A DNA stretch of 64,000 nucleotides from Mobula hypostoma (lineage: Eukaryota), in assembly GCF_963921235.1 (NCBI RefSeq), contig NC_086108.1, positions 52,454,001-52,518,000 on the forward strand. The letters are read 5' to 3'. The notes beneath the pieces were generated by a model, which searched no databases, was not told the origin of the DNA, and saw only the letters and a program-made list of their open reading frames with translations. The stretch's first letter is position 1, and every line of letters begins with the position of its first letter. A program made the translations under genes and the position numbers. Below, piece after piece: positions 465 to 54,200 of this stretch.

Positions 465-559
465 CCTCAGCGCTGTTGATGTAAACAGGAGCATTAGCAT
501 CACCCCGCTTCCTGAAGTCAATGACCAGCTCTTCTGTTTTGATGACATTGAGGAAAAGG

Positions 560-2470
560 AGCATTCAAAGCGACTCCATCTGCACACCTAGGACAATCAG
601 ACCACACCTCCCTCACACTGACCCCACCTTACAGACCACAGATCTGCAGAGTTAAACCAACTATCAAGGCAGTACATGTGTGGTCTGCGGAAGCCACCTC
701 AATGCTACAGGACTGTTTTGACAACAGAGATTGGGGCTTGTTTGCAAAGGGAGCAGACCTGGAGGAATATGCTGGTTCAGTCCTAAGATATATTAAGTTT
801 TGCACAGAAAATGTAATAACACAAAAGACAATTAAGGTGTTTCCCAATCAGAAGCCATGGATTAACAGCAATGTGAGGGCACTACTCAGGGAGCGCGATG
901 CAGCCTTCAGGTCAGGAGACAAACAAGCCTACAGTGAAGCACGGGGGAATCTCCGCAGGGACATCAGGGATGCGAAGCGCAAATACAAATTGCGCATTGA
1001 AAATCAGTTTGATAACAACAACCCCCGCAGTATGTGGAAAGGCATCAAGGCGCTGACAGACTACAAATCCAATAATCTGCTGCCAGATGATGACGCCACG
1101 ATACTCAGAGGGAGGAGGCTGCTCCACTCATCAACCCACCTGACGATGAGTCCACACTGATCCTTAAGCAACATCAGGTGAGATCCACCCTGAGGAAAGT
1201 GAATGCGAGTAAGGTAGCTGGCCCAGACGGAGTGCCCGGCCGGGTACTGAAAGCATGTGCCGACCTGCTTGCTGAGGTGTTTACAAGTATATTTAACCTA
1301 TCACTGCAACAAGCTGTTGTTCCATCATGCCTTAAAACCTCCACCATCATCCCAGTGCCCAAAATATCAGCTGTGAAGTGCCTGAATGACTATGGCCCTG
1401 TAGCGCTGACACCCATAGCCATGAAGTGCTTTGAGAGACTTGTGCTCTCACACAATAAGGCTATAATCCCACCTGATCTGGACAAACACCAGATTGCCTA
1501 CTGGGCAAACTGCTCCACAGAGGATGCAATCACAACAGCCCTCCATATTGCTCTGACTCACTTAGAGGAACCGAACACTTATGTGAGGATGTTATTTGTG
1601 GACTTCAGTTCCGCACTTAACACAGTCTTCCCCCATAAACTGGTCAGCAAACTGAACACTCTTGGCCTTGGTTCCTCCCTGTGCTCATGGGTCATGGACT
1701 TTCTCACAGACCAACCACAGCAAGTCAGAATTGGTAAGCACACCTCCACCACCCTCATCTTAAAAATAGGCACCCCGCAGGGCTGTGTGCTGAACCCTAT
1801 GCTCTATACACTCTTCACACATGACTGCACCCCCCTCTACACCTCCAACTCCGTAATTAAATTTGCGGAGGATACCACAGTGGTTGGCCTGATCTCGGAC
1901 AAGGATGAAACAGCCTACAGGCTTGAGGTGGATCATCTGACGGAGTGGTGTAAGGACAACGACCTGGTCCTTAACACTTCTAAAACAAAAGAGATGATCA
2001 TTGACTTCAGGAGATCAAAGGACAAAGTACACCCCCCCCCCGCCATATACATGGAGAGGTAGTGGAAAGTGCGGAAAACCTAAAGTTTCTTGGAGTTATG
2101 TTGTTAAAACAGCTGACATGGACCACCAACACCTCGCTGCTTGTAAAAAAGGCACAACAAAGACTCTTCTTCCTTAGAAATCTGAACAAGGCCAAACTCC
2201 CACAAAAGCTGTTGCTTAACTTCTACAGAAGCACAATTGAAACCATCCCAACCACAGCGTGGTATGCCAGCTGCACAGCCGCTGAGCAACAAGACCTGCA
2301 TCGCGTGGTGAAGGTGGCCCAGCGAATTGTCAGGATGGAGCTCCCAGGACTGAACACCATCTATTCCAGCAGACTCAGGAGGAAAGCAATCAGAATAACC
2401 AGAGACACCACACAACCCAGCCACTCCCTGTTTGACCCGCTGCCGTCCAGCAGAAGGTTCAAGACACTAA
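560..2470 (+). mobile_element. Rex-Babar (Rex1-like) LINE with frameshifted RT; resumes at ~4408-4720
   Basis: ORFs with GPDG, PVALTPIAMKCFERLV, GTPQGCVL, KFAEDT; C-terminal RRFKTL|KARTNRLRNSFYP split by an insertion. Confidence 0.85.
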
Positions 2471-2998
2471 CTATGGCGCTATGAGGGAGGAGCTGGCCAA
2501 AGTTCAATGGAACAATACCCTAGCAGGGATGAGAGTGGAACAGCAATGGCAAGTGTTTCTGGGAAAAATGCGGAAGGTGCAGGATCAGTTCATTCCATAG
2601 AGGAAGAAAGATCCTAAGGGGAGTAAGGGGAGGCCGTGGCTGACAAGGGAAGTAATGGACAGTGTAAAAATAAAAGAGAAGTATAATATAGAAAAGACGA
2701 GTGGGAAGCCAGAGGACTGGGAAACTTTTAAAGAGCAACAGAAGGTAATTAAAAATACACGGAGAAAAAATGAGGTACGAAGGTAAACAAGCCAAGAATA
2801 TAAAGGAGGATAGTAAAAGCTTCTTTAGGTATGTGAAAAGGAAAAAAATAGTTAAGACCAAAATTGGGCTCTTGAAGACGGAAACGGGTGAATGTATTAT
2901 GGGGAACAAGGAAATGGCAGACGAGTTGAACAGGTACTTTGGATCTGTCTTCACTAGGGAAGACACAAACAATCTCCCAGATATAATAGTGGCCAAAA
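2471..2998 (+). mobile_element. CR1 LINE internal fragment
   Basis: KEDSKSFFRYVKRK...MADELNRYFGSVFTRED. Confidence 0.85.
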
Positions 2999-5330: not shown

Positions 5331-6420
5331 AGAAGTCTTTGTTTCTCTTTAAATAGTGCAGATCAGCCTTGAATGTCTACTTGAGAATACAGCCTCAGAA
5401 AGGGTAAGACGAGGGAAAACATACCAGTCCTCATAGATGGATCAGAGGTGGAAAGAGTGAGCAATTTCAAGTTCCTGGGTGTCAATACCTCTCAGGATCT
5501 ATCCTGGGCCCAACATATCGATCCAGTTACAAAGAAGGCACAACAGCAGCTATATTTCATTAGGAACTTGAGGAGTTTTGGATATCCCCAAAGACACTCA
5601 CAAATTTCTACAGATGTACTGTGGAGCATTCTAATTGGCTGCATCGCTGTCCAGTATGCAGGGGGACGGGGGGGGGGAGCTACTGCACAGGATCAAAATG
5701 AGCTGCAGAGAGTTGTAAACTTAGCTCCACCATGAGCACTAGCCTCCATAGTATTCACAACACTTTCAAGGGGTAATGCTCCAAAAAGGCACCATCCATC
5801 ATTAAGGACCCCTAACACCCAGGACATGCCCTGTTCTCATTGCTACCATCAGAAAGGAGGTACAGGAGTCTGAAGACATACACTCAACGATTCAGGGACA
5901 GCTTCTTCCCCTCTGCCAATGGACATTGAACTCATGAACACTACCTCACTACTTTTTTATTTCTATTTTTGCACTACTTATTTTTATTTTTTTATATATA
6001 AAGCAAAGCTATATAATCGGATGATCTTGAACATGATTCGCACCGCCATTGACCCTAAGCTAAGATTCAATCAGAATGGTTTTCGGCAGAAGCGCACAAC
6101 AGTAATGCAAATACTTGCTGTCCGTAGAATCATTGAGGAAGTCAAGAAGAACAACATACCAGCCGTGCTTACTTTCACTGATTTTCGCAAAGCTTTTGAC
6201 TTCATTCACCAAGGTAAAATGTTGAAGATCCTGAAAGCTTACGGAGTGCCAGACCGTCTACTGACAGCAATAGTGTCCAGCTATACCAAAACCATGGCGA
6301 AAGTTGTACCACCAGATGGAGAAACAGCAGTGTTTGAGCTCCTAGCTGGTGTGCTGCAAGGAGACACTCTGGCACCCTACGTCTTTATAATCGTCCTTGA
6401 TTACACTCTACGTCAAGCTA

Positions 6421-6986
6421 TATGGGGTGTCAGGGAGGGGTAGCACCTCTGGTGGGGGAACATGTCGCGTCCTTTTCAGGGCGGTTAGTCCACCTTTGGT
6501 CCCCACCTGGCACTCAGCTCTCACCTGTGGCTCCCTGTAGCTGTTTGCATGCGACAGCGGCCACACCCCGGGCAACGGCTTTGACAAGCCAGCTAAACCA
6601 GGTGAGGGTAGCTGACGGGTCTCAAACCCTCGGTGAGATAGGGAGTTGTCTATCCCAGCATGTGAAGACAGACTCCGGCGGATTGAGCGGACGAGACCAA
6701 TGGAAGGTCCAACGGTCAAGAAGGCAGTCTCTGCAAGCGTCATGGAACGTGTTGAGCAGGACAAGACACAGAAGACGTCCTGGTCATCCACTGTGCCTAG
6801 TCCCATATCCAGCCGTCTAGATTCTGTCTTGCCACTGGACCCAGATGGGAATTGGGAAGAGAGAGTGAGGCTGACGCTGCGCAACTCTCCCTCACTTAAA
6901 TCCAAATCACGCGCTAGTCTCGACACCATCATTATGGTGTCGAGGTCCTCATCGACGTCAACGATGGACAAACAACAACAACAACA
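6421..6986 (+). mobile_element. Non-autonomous RTE-type retroposon with 5' HDV-like ribozyme, copy 1
   Basis: TSD ACGTCAA(G/A)CTA at 6410-6420 and 6987-6997; (CAA)n tail; 3' hairpin at 6919-6944; interrupts an RTE RT ORF; near-identical to the copy at 29529-30094. Confidence 0.9.
6424..6608 (+). ncRNA. HDV-like self-cleaving ribozyme (predicted), copy 1
   Basis: P1 GGGGTGT/ACACCCC; P2 CTCTCACCTG/CAGGTGAGGG; P3 GGC/GCC; P1.1 CC/GG; P4 GGCTT/AAGCC; J4/2 GCTAA with C6593. Confidence 0.75.
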
Positions 6987-9269
6987 ACGTCAAACTACCA
7001 AAGATCATGACAAACTTGGTTTTACCATAAAACCAGGACGAACCAAAAGGGTCAGACCAGTTATGCTCACAGATCTCGATTTTGCAGATGACATAGTCCT
7101 GCTCTCTGACCAGATGGAGGAAGCACAGCAGCTACTGACAAAAGTGGAAATTGAGTGCAATAAAGTTGGACTTCACCTAAACGCTAAAAAGACAGAGTAC
7201 ATGGCGTTTAACTGCGACGAAGGTAGTCTCAAGACCGTAAAGAATGATACCATTAAGAAAGTCTTTGACTTCAAGTACCTCGGGTCAAGAATGATCAGTT
7301 CAGAGAAGGACATAAAGATATGGAAGGCGCTGGCATGGGGGGCTATGAACAACATGAAGGAAATCTGGAAGTCAAACCTGACGAGAGGGCTTAAAAAGAG
7401 GATCTTCATAGCAGTCAGAGTCCATTCTCACGTACGGATGCAAGATGTGGACACTCACCAAGACTACGTGAAAGTCTCTAGATGGTTGCTGTACACGAAT
7501 GCTCCAGTTGGCTCTTGATGTGAGTTGGCAACAGCACATGACGAACGTCAAGCTCTATGAGGACCTATCGATGCTCACCACTAAAATCGAGTCAAGAAGA
7601 CTGTAACTAGCGGGGCACTGTCTACGCCACCCCGAGCTACCTGCCAGCCTAGTCATCATACAGGAGTCCGAGCATGGGAGGATGAACCCTGGGTGCCCTC
7701 CCAAGACTATGGTCAACACACTCCTAGAAGCCAGCGGCACGGCTAATGTAGATGAACTGAACACACTGATGAGGGAGAGGGAGAAGTGGAGAGTCCATCA
7801 CCGTGCCTGACGCTGGCCCCCTAAGCCTGAGTCAACGTAGTAGTAGTATATAAAATATATAAATAAATACATACATTATATCTTTACACATATACACACA
7901 CACATACACACACACTTAACTGTAATACAGTTTTTCTCTATTATTATGTATTGCATTGTACTGCTGCCGCAAAGACAACAGATTTCAAAATTTATGCCAG
8001 TGATATTAAATCTGATTCTGACTTCTAATAGAAAAACTTCCAATAATACAACATGCTATATATTTCACTGGACAAATTCACACAAAAATCCATGAGCCAA
8101 AGCAGAATAAATTCATAAATGAAGCCATGCACCTGTGTACTTTGATTTGGCCATTATCCAGGAATTTTATATTGATATCTTTATTCAGAAAATGGACTAC
8201 AGTTACTCATTGATTAAAACCTTTGATGGCAATAACTCTTGCAGATGGAAGTGCCATAGAAAACAAATGTAAATTGGGTCAATGTTTGCTGAGCATTTCC
8301 ATTTAAAGAAATCCAGTCACCTGAATCTTTAATTCTTCACCCCCGCTCTTTCGTCCCCTACATGTTCAAAAAAATCCAATGCAAACTCAAGGAATAGAAC
8401 TTCCATCTTCTCTCTGGGTACATTGAAACCTTCAGGACTTCCTTTCCCTCCACAGATGTAATGGTGTCTCTTAGTTTCAATTATTTTTCCTTGCATATTT
8501 CTAAATGGTGCTTTGATTTAAAGTAACTGTTACTTGAGAATTTTGGTCCACCCCTAACCTAGAGATTCCCTCTGGTGACAAAAGAGACTGCAGATACTGG
8601 AAAAGCTCCACCTCTCCTCCTCTCTGCATCTCTGTAGAACAAAGGACCCGACAGAAAATCCTGGCAATTCTGGACAATGTTTCTCACCCTCTGCATGCCA
8701 CCTTGGCTGAACAGAGGAGCACTTTTAGTAACAGACAAAGACAACTGTGCTGCTCCAAAGAGCGCTATAACAATTACCTTCGGCCATTAGGCTCTATAAT
8801 GAGCCAACCTATAGCCGGGGAAGTGGTGACCGCCTCCTGTTTGACTGAGGTAACTTATTTTTTTAATTCTTTCTTTCTTCTCTTCTAATATTTGTAAATC
8901 TGTGTTCCTGTAATGGTATTGTAACACTGTAAACACCTTTGGGATCAATAAAGTATCTAACTTTCTATCTATCTTAATATGCTTGTTTTCTCTATTGTTT
9001 CAGTGTAGGTAAGGATCCTTGATGCCAGCTCTGTTCCTGCACTTGGTGATCTTATGAACTGATGAGTGTTACAACAGTTTGTTTTTGTTATCATAACTAC
9101 TGCCTGTCACTTCTAATATTCAGATTATTCAAAACTTGTTTAGCTATATGAATGTCATGTTGATACATCTGTCAAAGTTATTGCTTGATGTCAAATGGCA
9201 GTTTTGATGAAACTAATTATACCCTCCACATTTCACAACACAACTACTTTGAAAAAAAGAGAGTAACAG

Positions 9270-27900: not shown

Positions 27901-30900
27901 AAGAACAAACTAGGAGTGCTGAATGAAACAATATAAAAATTTCAAAACAGCATACATTCAGGGAACATGAGATACAGAGTCAGAGAGCTGTACAACACAG
28001 AAACATGTCCTTTGGCCCAATTTGTCCAGACCAACCTAGGTGCCTTCCCCAGTTAACTGGCCCATATTCCTCTAAGCCCTTCCAATCCATGTACCTATCA
28101 GAATGTCTTTTAAACATTGTAGTTGTGTCTGCTTCTACCACTTCCTCTGGCAACTTGTTCCATGTACCCAACACTATCTGTGTGGAAAAAAGTGTCCTCA
28201 GGTCCCCTTAAAGTCTATCCCCTCTAACCTGAAATGAATGCCTCTAGGTTTACACTTCCCTAATATGCGAATAAAAGACTTTTACCATCCAACCAACCTA
28301 CAATTCTCCATGATTTTATAAACTTGTACAAAGGCAGTCTCAGCCACCTTCCCAACCCAACCAGTCTCTTCTTATAACTCAAGCCCTCCAATCCCAGCAA
28401 CAACTTTGCAAATTGTTTCTGCACCCTCCAAGTCTTAAGCACATCCTTCCAAGAGTACCTAGTACAGCACAGGAATGCACCCTTCAGTTCATGATGTTGT
28501 GCTGAACTGCACACTGTGCAAAGGGTAAATATATATAGCCAAGGTGCCTAAACTTTTGCACAGTATTGTAGTATTTTGATGTAATGCTCTGTATTGCTGC
28601 CGCAGAAAAAAAGTTCATGACATGTGAGTGATGATAAACCTGATTCTGAAATAGGTCTCTATTGTGGACTGAGAGTGGGAAGGGGACAGGGAGAGGGGAA
28701 TCATGGTTGGCAAAAGGGGAAGGGAGAGGGTAAAGAGTGGGATGCACCAGAGACATTCTATAATGATCAATAAACCAATTGTTTAGAATCAAATGACCTT
28801 GCTTGGTGTCTCAGGGCTGGGTGTGCACCCGTGCAACACCCCCCCCCAACCTTGGCACACCTTCTCTGCCACCTGTCCCACATCCCTCCTGTGGCACTCT
28901 ACCCTATCCACTCCCAACATCCTTTGCTCCTGCCAGATTTACAAACTCGCTCTCCGCACCAATTTGACAAATACAGTACTGTGTAAAAGCCTTAAGCACC
29001 CTAGCCTTTTACACGCACCTAAGCCTTTTGCACAGTATGTAAATAAATGCTCAACTAAACTAAGTTGGTCTCTTTTTATCCCCCAGTCTAAGACAGGAGG
29101 CATTGCATTTAAAGTGAGATGAGCTAAATGCAAAGATGTCTGAGATATCTATTACCTCAGTCACTGCACTACATTGAAATCACTTTTTTAAACCTCTCTT
29201 TATAATGCTCTTTACATTGTAAATACATGTTGGTATTTATGTATGTTCTACTCCATATCCATACTTCAACCTTTCAGTTTATTTTTTATATAATTCTTTA
29301 CTCTTATAATTGAATAAATGTTTTTTTGTTGCATGGCAAGCCAGCACACCACAGCAAATTCCTAATACATGTGAATGTATATGGCAAATACAGTTGATCC
29401 TTCATCCTCAAGACCTCTTAGATAGGCATATTAATGTGCAGAGAGTGTAGGGATATGCAGAAGGGATATAAATGACACATTGTCCAAAGTTAGGAAGTAC
29501 AATAAATCCAGATCATCTACGTAGCAGGGGTATATGGGGTGTCAGGGAGGGGTAGCACCTCTGGTGGGGGAACATGTCGCGTCCTTTTCAGGGCGGTTAG
29601 TCCACCTTTGGTCCCCACCTGGCACTCAGCTCTCACCTGTGGCTCCCCGTAGCTGTTTGCATGCGACAGCGGCCACACCCCGGGCAACGGCTTCGTCAAG
29701 CCGGCTAAACCAGGTGAGGGTAGCCGACGGGTCTCAAACCCTCGGTGAGATAGGGAGTTGTCTATCCCAGCATGTGAAGACAGACTCCGGCGGATTGAGC
29801 GGACGAGACCAATGGAAGGTCCAACGGTCAAGAAGGCGGTCTCTGCAAGCGTCGTGGAACGTGTAGAGCAGGACAAGACACAGAAGATGTCCTGATCATC
29901 CACTGCGCCTAGTCCCATCTCCAGCCATCTAGACTCTGTCTTGCCACTGGACCCAGATGGGAATTGGGAAGAGAGAGTGAGGCTGACGCTGCGCAACTCT
30001 CCCTCACTTAAATCCAAATCACGCGCTAGTCTCGACACCATCATTATGGTGTCAAGGTCCTCATCGACGTCAACGATGGATGAACAACAACAACACGTAG
30101 CAGGCTGCTAGAAAATGGCAGTGGTAAAAGAAGTTTTAATCAAAATATGAAAAAAATATGAAGAAAGAAGAAAGATTTCCTAGGTTGACACCTCTAGGAA
30201 GTATGCACACAGGGATAATATTGGCTTTGTGCAAAGCTGTCCCAAAAGCAAATAATTTTTAATTTGAGTTTATATATGTAAATATACATACGTACTCACA
30301 CACACATTAGAACATAATTTCAGAAAACACAAAAGATAGCACTTGCACTTTCACTTCCAAAATCATCTTAAAAGACGTCCTTTAAGGTATGTGGTGATAA
30401 TAATATGCTCTGCCAAATATCGGACACATATAAGCTTTTTAAAAAAAAGATGGAATTAATAATTACCACTGCTGTAGGCTGGTTCATTTGTTCAGCTAAA
30501 TGCAAGCATGAGTTGAAGGAATAGAGAATGTCCTCACAAAGACCAGCAACAAGTCCATCATGTGGCAGCTTACTCTCCAGCAATGCCCGGTGCTTCACAC
30601 TTATTCTGAAACAGAATGCCGAACTATTAAAACAGAATCTGATTTACAGCTATGGTGTAAAACCATTTTCTCTAATAATCAACTGAATGAAAGCATTTCT
30701 GAAATTTTCATGAAAGGCTGCTACAATTTTATTTCTATAGAGCCCCCTAGTGGGACAGTTGTGCTGCCACTCAGTACATAATCCTAACAGCAGTGTAACT
30801 TCCACATCTTTTTCCTGCCCAATCACTAATTGTCTAAATAGCCAAAAATTAAATCAATACAATCATTTCTGGAAACAGTGCTAAAATTGAATGACAAAAT

Positions 30901-51239: not shown

Positions 51240-54200
51240 TAGACCATAAAACCCATAAGATATTGGAGCAGAATTAGGCCATTTGACCCAGAGTATGCTC
51301 TGCCATGTGATTATGACTGATCCATTTCCCTTTCAACCCCATTCCTCAGCCTTCTCTCTGTGACCTTTGACACTCTGACTTATGAAGAATCTATCAGTCG
51401 TCATCTTAAGTTCTCTCAGTGACCTGGTCTCCACAGCCACCTGTGGCAAATGTATTCCACAGATTCTGGCTAAAGAAATTCCTCCTCATATTTGTTCTAG
51501 GTGGATGTCCCTCTATGGTGAAGTTGTGCCCTCTGGTTTTAAACTCCCCCATGCTAGGAATCATACCCTCCACGTCCATTCTATCTAGGGCTTTCAACAT
51601 TTGATAGGTTTCAATGAGAGTCCCTCTCACTCTTTTAAATTCCAGTGAGTACAGGCCCAGAGTCATCAAACACTCCTCATATGATAAGCCTTTCATTCCT
51701 GAAATCTTTTTCACAAACCTCCTTTAAACCCTCCCCAATGTCAACACACCCTGTCTTAGATAAGAGGCACAAAACTGCTCACAATACTCCAAGTGAGGTC
51801 TCACCAGTGCTTTATAACCCTCAGCATTACAGCCTTGCTTTTATATTCTAGTCCTCTCAAAATGAATGCTAACATTTACCTTCCTCACCACTGACTCAAC
51901 CTACAAGTTAACCTCTAGGAAATCCTGCACGAGGACTCCCAAGTCGCTTTGCACCTCATATTTTAGAATTTTCTCCCCATTTAGAAAATAGTCTACGCTT
52001 TTATTCCTTCTACCAAAGTGCATAACCATACACTTCCTGACACTGTATTCCATCTGCCACGTGGTTCCCCATTCCCCAAATCTGTCCAGGTCGTTCTGTA
52101 CACCCCCACTTCCTCAACACTACCTGCCTCTCCACCTCTATTTGTATCATCCGCAAGCTTGGCCACAAAGCCATCAATACCATCATTCAAATCACAGACA
52201 TGCAGTGTAAAAAGAGGGCAGTCCTAATACCGACCCCTATGAAACACCGCTAGTCATTGGCAGCCAAACCAAAAGGATCCCTTTATTCCCACTCTTTGCC
52301 TCCTGCCAATCAGCCAATGCTCTATCCATGCTGGTAACTTTCCTGTTATACCCTGTGAGGCACCTTGTCAAAGGCCTTCTGAAAGTCCAAGTACACAACA
52401 TCCATCGATTCTCCTTTGTCTGTGAGGTGAGGATGTCTGTTGGTCAGAATTGACCATGGGTATTGCGTCCTAGCTGCCCAGATATGCAAGCCTGGGCAGT
52501 ATGATATGGAGAGCAAGCTGTTGCCCATATAGCAAGCTCCCCCTCTCCACACAACTGAAGAACCCAGAGGAACAGCAGAGACTGATACGGTTTGGTACCA
52601 GCAACATCGCGGGAGTTGCTCAGCATTGAACTCAATGTAGGACTGCCTTAGCGACTCCAGCTCCAGATTTTTCCCTCGGGGTTTACTCCCGATCTTCCCC
52701 ATGAGTGGGTATAGCCACAAGTTACTGAAGTTTGAAATCATAGTTTTCCTTTTCCTAGATGAGCTGACAAGCCCCGTCTGCCCAAAGCAACTGGTTTTAA
52801 GGCACCAGTAACCCACCTTTGCCCCTTCTCCTGTCAGTAGAAATGGTTCCACTGGGTTTGATAACTAAGCCGCACATGAAGGCCAGGAGCTGGTCTTGGT
52901 TGTCAAAGGCTATTTACGGCACACGCCATTGGGAGCACTTTAATAGGTAGTGGGAGCTTGTCCCCGTTATCACCCCTGGCTGTAACAACCTTAAGGATCC
53001 TTTGTCTATCCTGCTTGTTATTTCCTCAGAGATTCCAATAGATCTGCCAGGGAAGATGTTCTCATAAGAAACCATGCTGACTTTGGCCCATTTTATCACG
53101 TGGCTCCAAGTACCTCGAAACCTCATGCTTAACACCAAAATCTTCTCAATTACTGAGGTCAGGCTAACTGACCTATAAGTTCCTATCTTCTGCCTCCCTC
53201 CCTTCTTGAAGAGTGGAGTGACATTTGCAATTTTCCTGAGCTCCTGAACAGTGTCAGAACCTATTGATTCTTGAAAGATCATTAGTAATGTCTCCACAAT
53301 CTCTTCAGCTACCTCTGTCAGAACCCTGGGGTGTAGTCTATCTACTCCAGGTGACTTATCTACCTTAAGACCTTTCAGCTTCCCAAGCACCTTTTAATAG
53401 CAACTGCACTCACTTCTGCCCCCGGCACTCTCAAACATCCAGCATACTAGTAGTATCCTCCACAGTAAAGACTGATGCAAAATACTTATTCATTTTGTCT
53501 GCCATCTCCCTGTCCCCGATTACTACCTCTCCAGCGTCACTTTTCAGCAGTCTGATATCTACTCTTGCCTCTCTTTTACTCTTTATATATCTGAAAAAAC
53601 TTTCGGATTCCTCTTTGATATTATTGGCTAGCTTACCTTCATGTTTTATCTTTTCATGGCTTTTATCTTTTTATGGCTTTTTTAGTTGCCTTCTGTTAGT
53701 TTTTAAAAGCTTCCCAATCCTCCAACTTCCCACTAATTATTGCTCTATTATATGCCCTCTCTTTTGCTATTATGTTGGCTTTGACTTCCCTTGTCAGCCA
53801 TCATCATGTCATCCTGCCTTTAGAATACATCTTCTTCTGCTTTGGGATGTATCTATCCTGCACCTTCTGAATTGCTCCCAGGAACTCCAGCCATTGCTTC
53901 TCTGCTGTCATCCCTGCTACTGTCCCCTTCCAATCAACCTTGGCCACCTCCTATCTAATGCCTCTGTATTTCCTTTTACTTCACTGCAATACTGATATAT
54001 CTGACTTTAGCTTCTCCATCCCAAATGGCAGGGTGAATTCTATCATATTATGATCACTGCCTCTAGAAGGTTACTTTACCTTAAGCTCTCTAATCAACCA
54101 CCCAGTCCAGAATACCTGAATCTTTAGTGGGCTCTGCTCTGTGCTGTACGTCAATAAAGAAATAAGCTGCACAAAAAAAAACCATCTCATGGCATTCTAC

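Follow-up and report, generated by a model that had tools for sequence, protein, structure and literature searches.

We conclude that the 5′ end of a short retroposon in the genome of Mobula hypostoma is probably an HDV-type, self-cleaving double pseudoknot in which an intact 8-nt L3 is followed by a predicted hairpin of 5–7 bp. The element has defined boundaries and a target site duplication (TSD), keeps the core positions of HDV-like ribozymes, and shares its near-universal insert with the members of two LINE families. Judged from sequence, we are dealing with a real structural variant, common to the whole family, of a ribozyme type already known, and the copy in our window is a damaged one. 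By the window we mean the whole 64,000-nt stretch analysed (contig NC_086108.1, 52,454,001–52,518,000, forward strand), to which all positions below refer (Table 1); published systems are compared as far as their accessible text goes.

The window element, which we assign to family A, is a non-autonomous retroposon with an HDV-type 5′ end. It interrupts the reverse-transcriptase (RT) frame of a host LINE, with RVT_1 recognized on either side, and the empty site present in 11 of 11 other copies of that LINE fixes the 11-bp TSD and places the start of the element at 6421. A TSD combined with a short-repeat tail marks family A as a non-autonomous retroposon, as does its likeness to autonomous elements: the 5′ part is 77–81% identical, over 230–375 nt, to the 5′ ends of all six LINE stretches compared, and these partners carry a Pfam endonuclease and RVT_1. 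We take the partners to be RTE elements, on account of their length of about 4 kb and the order of their domains, the endonuclease preceding RT. The 3′ ~200 nt of family A found no match among the six full-length LINE stretches. The 3.5-Gb genome has at least 2,734 candidate loci of the family; across the 197-nt query, the 40 best of them show 97–100% identity. Near its 3′ end the element contains a near-perfect 26-nt inverted repeat (6919–6944, + strand), also present in the 29.5-kb copy, which is possibly an RT recognition hairpin.

Table 1. Positions of the family A element, its HDV-like core and related features in the window
Feature	Position	Strand	Evidence
Family A retroposon, ORF-less, about 570 nt, (CAA)n tail; first ~280–373 nt resemble LINE 5′ ends	6421–6988	+	TSD, empty sites, LINE likeness
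TSD, 5′ copy; 11 bp, differing from the 3′ copy at one position	6410–6420	+	Empty sites in host-LINE copies
3′-terminal 3 nt of the upstream unit (9 nt when complete), the likely P1 5′ strand of full-length copies; first 6 nt missing in the window copy	6421–6423	+	Copy comparison, empty sites
Second copy of the P1-matching heptamer; predicted partner in the J1/2 helix (P1.2), possible fallback P1 strand	6424–6430	+	Folding
Long structured J1/2 domain (P1.2), predicted	6425–6516	+	Folding
P2, 5′ strand; 11 bp, one bulge on the 3′ strand	6518–6528	+	Folding, alignment
P3, 5′ strand	6529–6531	+	Window sequence, alignment
Canonical part of L3 (HDV positions 20–27)	6532–6539	+	U20, C21, C22 and G25 present
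Extra hairpin; 6-bp stem, 7-nt loop	6540–6558	+	Sequence, folding, alignment, genome pattern counts
P3, 3′ strand	6560–6562	+	Window sequence, alignment
P1, 3′ strand (P1′), 7 nt	6563–6569	+	Sequence, descriptor
P1.1, 3′ strand (GG); partner 6533–6534	6570–6571	+	Alignment
P4; outer pair mismatched in the window copy	6576–6591	+	Alignment
J4/2, CNRA; putative catalytic C at 6593	6593–6596	+	Descriptor, sibling letters
P2, 3′ strand	6597–6608	+	Folding, alignment
Second family A copy, 97% identical; complete upstream unit with one P1 mismatch	29527–30095	+	Sequence comparison, TSD
Family B element; same layout, unrelated 7-bp stem (52871–52855), no P4; decayed copy	52421–53000	−	Sequence, descriptor, alignment

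The host LINE (5998–7849, + strand) is 5′-truncated and ends in a (GTA)n tail. Its family (L134, L135 and L171–L195) is conserved at a 5′ end of another kind, marked by tandem pentamers, which has also spread as ORF-less copies of ~270 nt (2,280 candidates); with its own 5′ end, none of 25 copies of this family passes our HDV descriptor. A broken LINE at 552–2484 (+ strand) combines RVT_1 with a C-terminal domain of the ALKBH8_N type.

Following the long J1/2, the element presents an 11-bp P2, a 3-bp P3, an L3 of the form U-C-C-x-x-G, a 7-nt P1′, the GG of P1.1, P4, CNRA and P2′, that is, the HDV-type order P1-P2-P3-P3′-P1′-P4-P2′ with P2 stacked on the 3-bp P3. U20 and G25 are in place in L3, as are the putative catalytic C and the A in the CNRA junction, and L3 positions 21–22 can form P1.1 with the GG after P1′ (90.6% of cells paired in the alignment, without covariation). 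The C at the catalytic position and G25 are each found in 29 of 29 family A siblings. Position 24 is U in the window copy and in nine of these siblings and C in the other 20, and the outer P4 position 6591, A in the window copy, is G in 18 of 29 siblings, the pair being mismatched in 11. Published descriptors allow an L3 of 7–8 nt, a C at position 24 and a J1/2 of up to about 51 nt (RNArobo supplement, PMC4870747), so that this layout is missed on both its loop and its junction, and U24 of the window copy departs from them as well; we have accordingly classed the element as a variant that would act like the HDV-like family and not as a descriptor member. The suggestion in the earlier note that searches with a fixed L3 would pass over it is borne out by these limits and by Rfam, in which 0 matches were obtained at the gathering score (and four weak, unrelated ones at E≤10).

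That note had described a 28-nt loop enclosing a 6-bp hairpin between the P3 strands, and the window sequence agrees exactly in coordinates and pairs: the loop at 6532–6559 divides as 8+6+7+6+1 nt, and the arms 6540–6545 and 6553–6558 form five Watson–Crick pairs and one U·G around a 7-nt loop. The extra length, 18–20 nt, lies between position 27 and P3. The 8-nt L3 is intact, the hairpin is appended at its 3′ edge, and the active-site residues are not replaced. As reference length the note had given about 7 nt for HDV and CPEB3; L3 has 7 nt in CPEB3 and 8 nt in genomic HDV (bioRxiv 10.1101/2022.09.22.508989, PMC1874588); J1/2 and P4, which it had named as the main sites of natural expansion, are both given as expandable in the figure legend of a review (PMC8256844). 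Taken singly, the stem is borderline against chance: when the 20-nt insert was shuffled, at least six pairs closing near both ends arose in 1,052 of 20,000 trials (p~0.05), and among 500 dinucleotide shuffles 129 equalled the window copy's stem in folding. The case for the hairpin rests on its context.

This context is, in the first place, the uniformity of the family, in which the L3 insert is a family-wide trait. Genome-wide pattern counts gave 2,861 copies with the long loop against five with the short one. A descriptor of our own, with the HDV-like layout and an L3 left free at 7–40 nt, had 38 matches in 986,802 bases of selected loci, in which L3 was always 26 or 28 nt, and none in 1,024,000 control bases; in an enlarged set of loci (1,457,220 bases) it had 43, with L3 of 28 nt (29 matches), 26 nt (12) or 27 nt (two) and none shorter, these loci having been picked for likeness and being thus enriched, so that the counts speak to uniformity and not to frequency. 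A hairpin-less subfamily was considered and rejected, the five short-loop copies being worn and each different from the others. The loci L166–L170 are five worn copies of subfamily C from which the hairpin is missing, some losses having apparently occurred between short direct repeats. The scan of viral contigs gave no match with the pattern and none in a LINE protein search, and of ten pattern matches in prokaryote genomes none passes the descriptor, which marks those matches as chance. A variant with a different hairpin loop, noticed in sequencing contigs, was not found in the genome, where each of the 13 matches differs from a known loop by point changes or small deletions; in 53 contigs of another organism a C-to-T change at 6541 retains pairing as U·G.

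In the second place, the same core stands at the 5′ ends of two LINE families of ~4 kb that have an endonuclease frame and an RT frame and share 64–73% DNA identity with one another and about 60% in RT, and it recurs in subfamily C and in one metagenome contig (L091). Comparing the subfamily majorities, U20, C21, C22, G25, the catalytic C and A78 are constant and L3 positions 23–24 variable, and the loop of the insert differs in both sequence and length, five pairs of the stem being preserved. Position 24 is A in subfamilies C and D, contrary to the published descriptor, and the majorities of subfamilies C and E fail the descriptor. The metagenome locus (WLWI01004976.1:4456–5736) is an intact relative that shares the 5′ unit and the core but has a rewritten J1/2 helix; its LINE 5′ sequence is ~85% identical to LINEs of the M. 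hypostoma genome, which makes it a candidate for horizontal spread.

Covariation and folding give a more mixed picture of the stem. Within an alignment of 17 copies (16 distinct) the extra stem is 97.6% paired; five of its six pairs vary on one side only, two-sided changes are absent, and seven of the 17 rows are gapped at two inner stem pairs. P4 has three pairs with two-sided changes, between subfamilies, and P2 (98.9% of cells paired) and P3 (100%) show scarcely any variation, so that they lend little independent support. The stem energy is no better than that of shuffles in the family A, D and metagenome copies (127, 337 and 375 of 500 for those besides the window copy). Nearest-neighbour folding, in which pseudoknots are not scorable, was applied to six of eight chosen sequences, the two without a descriptor match being left out. 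When the active-site bases were left unconstrained, the stem formed with a probability of 0.14–0.18 in the window copy, 0.24–0.48 in two relatives and 0.77–0.99 in two others, and P3 was frequently out-competed; with L3 20–25 held free, the probability was 0.90–0.95 (0.90 in the window copy). For a C24 sibling the unconstrained value was 0.42–0.48. In the window copy U24 lets the 3′ arm of the stem pair with L3 23–26, burying G25. These ensembles, the disruption of P3 in several relatives and the lack of two-sided covariation in the stem could mean that the ribozyme is real and the insert a folding switch, an attenuator whose pairing with P3 or with the active-site part of L3 would slow or gate cleavage. 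We consider this unlikely, given that the rival pairing needs U24, the minority letter among siblings, that the stem dominates once L3 20–25 is held free, and that the stem of a second family is stable in every setting.

That second family, family B, is in our view the strongest sign that an L3 helix is a real design feature. It shares no significant sequence with family A, is represented by at least 5,292 candidates in the genome and begins at its own P1 strand; its P1 has 6 bp, P4 is absent, and a 7-bp stem occupies the same place in L3. Pairing of this stem is kept in 321 of 364 cells (52 of 60 copies), just 1 and 4 of 500 shuffles gave an equally good fold, and its probability is 0.99 under every setting; two of 30 selected copies pass the descriptor, with an L3 of 27 nt. 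The recurrence of the layout at 52.4–53.0 kb, proposed earlier, consequently holds for the family and not for the copy in the window, whose P3, P1.1 and stem are all broken. The broader proposal of a structural variant is sustained as regards the HDV-like layout, the structured extension of L3 and its presence in a second, unrelated family, and is tempered by the intact canonical L3, the absence of two-sided covariation and the rival pairing. No autonomous partner for family B was found. Three loci (L139, L148 and L152) form a separate subfamily of family B, distinguished by its 5′ sequence and by the loop of its stem, and two of them (L148 and L152) are intact minimal HDV-like layouts without P4.

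Turning to the cut site, family copies have a 9-nt unit ahead of the heptamer found at 6424 in the window copy, and the first seven bases of this unit match P1′ as well. The true 5′ strand of P1 is likely to be this unit, which would place the cut 9 nt upstream of 6424. The sequence shared by family loci starts at the first G of the unit (majority letter 0.34–0.59 before it and 0.69–0.97 within, 64 of 89 loci being anchored), and the upstream register of P1 is predicted to be 8.4–11.8 kcal/mol more stable in three of three sequences, leaving the J1/2 helix whole; this placement agrees with the P1.2 and extended P2 of drz-Agam-2 (PMC4908430) and with the duplicated P1 strands at R2 junctions (PMC3774820). 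A perfect unit is present in 26 of the 64 anchored loci. Against this placement, the variant with a P1 mismatch, as in the 29527–30095 copy, occurs in seven of them, which implies that a source element carried that mismatch; about a quarter of R2 ribozymes, too, are mismatched at the top of P1 (PMC3774820). TSDs could be called in 22 of 31 copies, with only four starts exactly at the upstream G, seven inside the unit and 11 further upstream (a spread from −3 to −26), and in none of these 22 calls does the element start at the second unit. It could be argued that the cut falls instead at the second heptamer, the upstream unit being a junction by-product and the window copy complete, as that heptamer pairs perfectly with the 3′ strand of P1 and R2 junctions are known to bear duplications in tandem at the 5′ side (PMC3774820). 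Such a cut seems to us very improbable: all 30 family A loci retain at least 2 nt of the upstream unit, a unit with letters that have no counterpart in the second one, the LINE families and the metagenome relative begin with the same upstream unit, and 8–12 kcal/mol of J1/2 pairing would be lost. With P1 formed by the upstream unit, the expected strand (6–7 bp, beginning with G at the element's 5′ end) is truncated in the window copy and only the internal duplicate can pair. The window copy is therefore likely to be impaired, with poor or nil cutting predicted, because six of the seven upstream P1 bases are gone, U24 opens the rival pairing with G25, and P4 is mismatched.

Position 27 of HDV is reportedly extruded and dispensable. 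We suggest that the extra hairpin, which would close at the P3 end and point away from the active site, is a tolerated peripheral domain keeping the 18–20 extra bases off the core, considering that the active-site bases stay in register when it is placed after position 27. P1 and P2 may be pinched together by the long helix of J1/2 and the 11-bp P2, as in drz-Agam-2, and the cut would free the element RNA from read-through transcripts and give it a defined 5′ end from which it could be reverse-transcribed, a role described for the ribozymes of R2, L1Tc and RTE elements (PMC6765202). Alternatively, the insert may abolish catalysis and the fold may be a relic with another job (promoter, translation start or protein binding), the 5′ end being set by the transcription start or by RT. 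The scattered 5′ starts and the departures at P1 or position 24 in some subfamilies would fit a relic, as would the fact that no HDV-like ribozyme with an L3 helix or such a loop was found in the literature text searched, a body of text from which figures are absent and beyond which an earlier description is possible. We nevertheless rate loss of catalysis as decidedly improbable, since conservation between the diverged LINE families is limited to catalytic-type positions and helices, and two unrelated families each start at their own P1 G.

An active, tolerated helix would have consequences beyond this element. L3 belongs to the active site of HDV, and the search patterns used for censuses give it a fixed length. 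Should active natural ribozymes tolerate a helix added at this point, HDV-like ribozymes in animal retrotransposons have been counted incompletely, and engineering would have an additional insertion point adjoining the core. Going further, we put forward tentatively, with a little more doubt than belief, that HDV-like ribozymes accept peripheral domains naturally at a third place besides J1/2 and P4, namely the 3′ edge of L3, which at least two retrotransposon lineages unrelated in sequence would use, that a large class of active animal ribozymes has been missed by every fixed-L3 search, and that the helix tunes folding or the rate of cleavage. The genome itself offers test material: copies that are intact, others that differ in the stem, and five in which the hairpin has been deleted naturally.

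Finally, several described systems resemble the one presented here. HDV-like ribozymes have been placed on the 5′ ends of RTE elements (Ruminski 2011, as cited in PMC5786205 and PMC6765202), and those of R2 (PMC3774820) and of L1Tc/SIDER (PMC3185411, PMC4035085) share with ours the 5′ position, a P1 of 6–7 bp and a variable J1/2 and P4, the duplicated P1 strands at R2 junctions being likewise shared (PMC3774820); the variation described in the accessible text on these non-LTR ribozymes concerns J1/2, P4, J1/4 and small shifts of L3 spacing (Nasonia R2), and not an L3 helix. The bipartite ORF-less RTE derivatives (Kojima, 2018; PMC5786205) are likewise short, with a 5′ part derived from a LINE 5′ UTR, a short-repeat tail and a TSD, and differ from family A in that the 3′ ~200 nt of the latter match none of the six LINE stretches. 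With drz-Agam-2 (Webb et al., 2016; PMC4908430) our elements share the double-pseudoknot core, a paired long J1/2 (P1.2), short linkers and a P2 of 11–12 bp; its available text mentions no L3 insert, whereas L3 has 26–28 nt here. In comparison with genomic HDV and CPEB3, our elements have 18–20 additional nt ahead of P3 and a long J1/2, and family B lacks P4, but U20, C22, G25, P1.1 and the CNRA junction are held in common, and in the main family B subfamily the first seven L3 residues are those of CPEB3.
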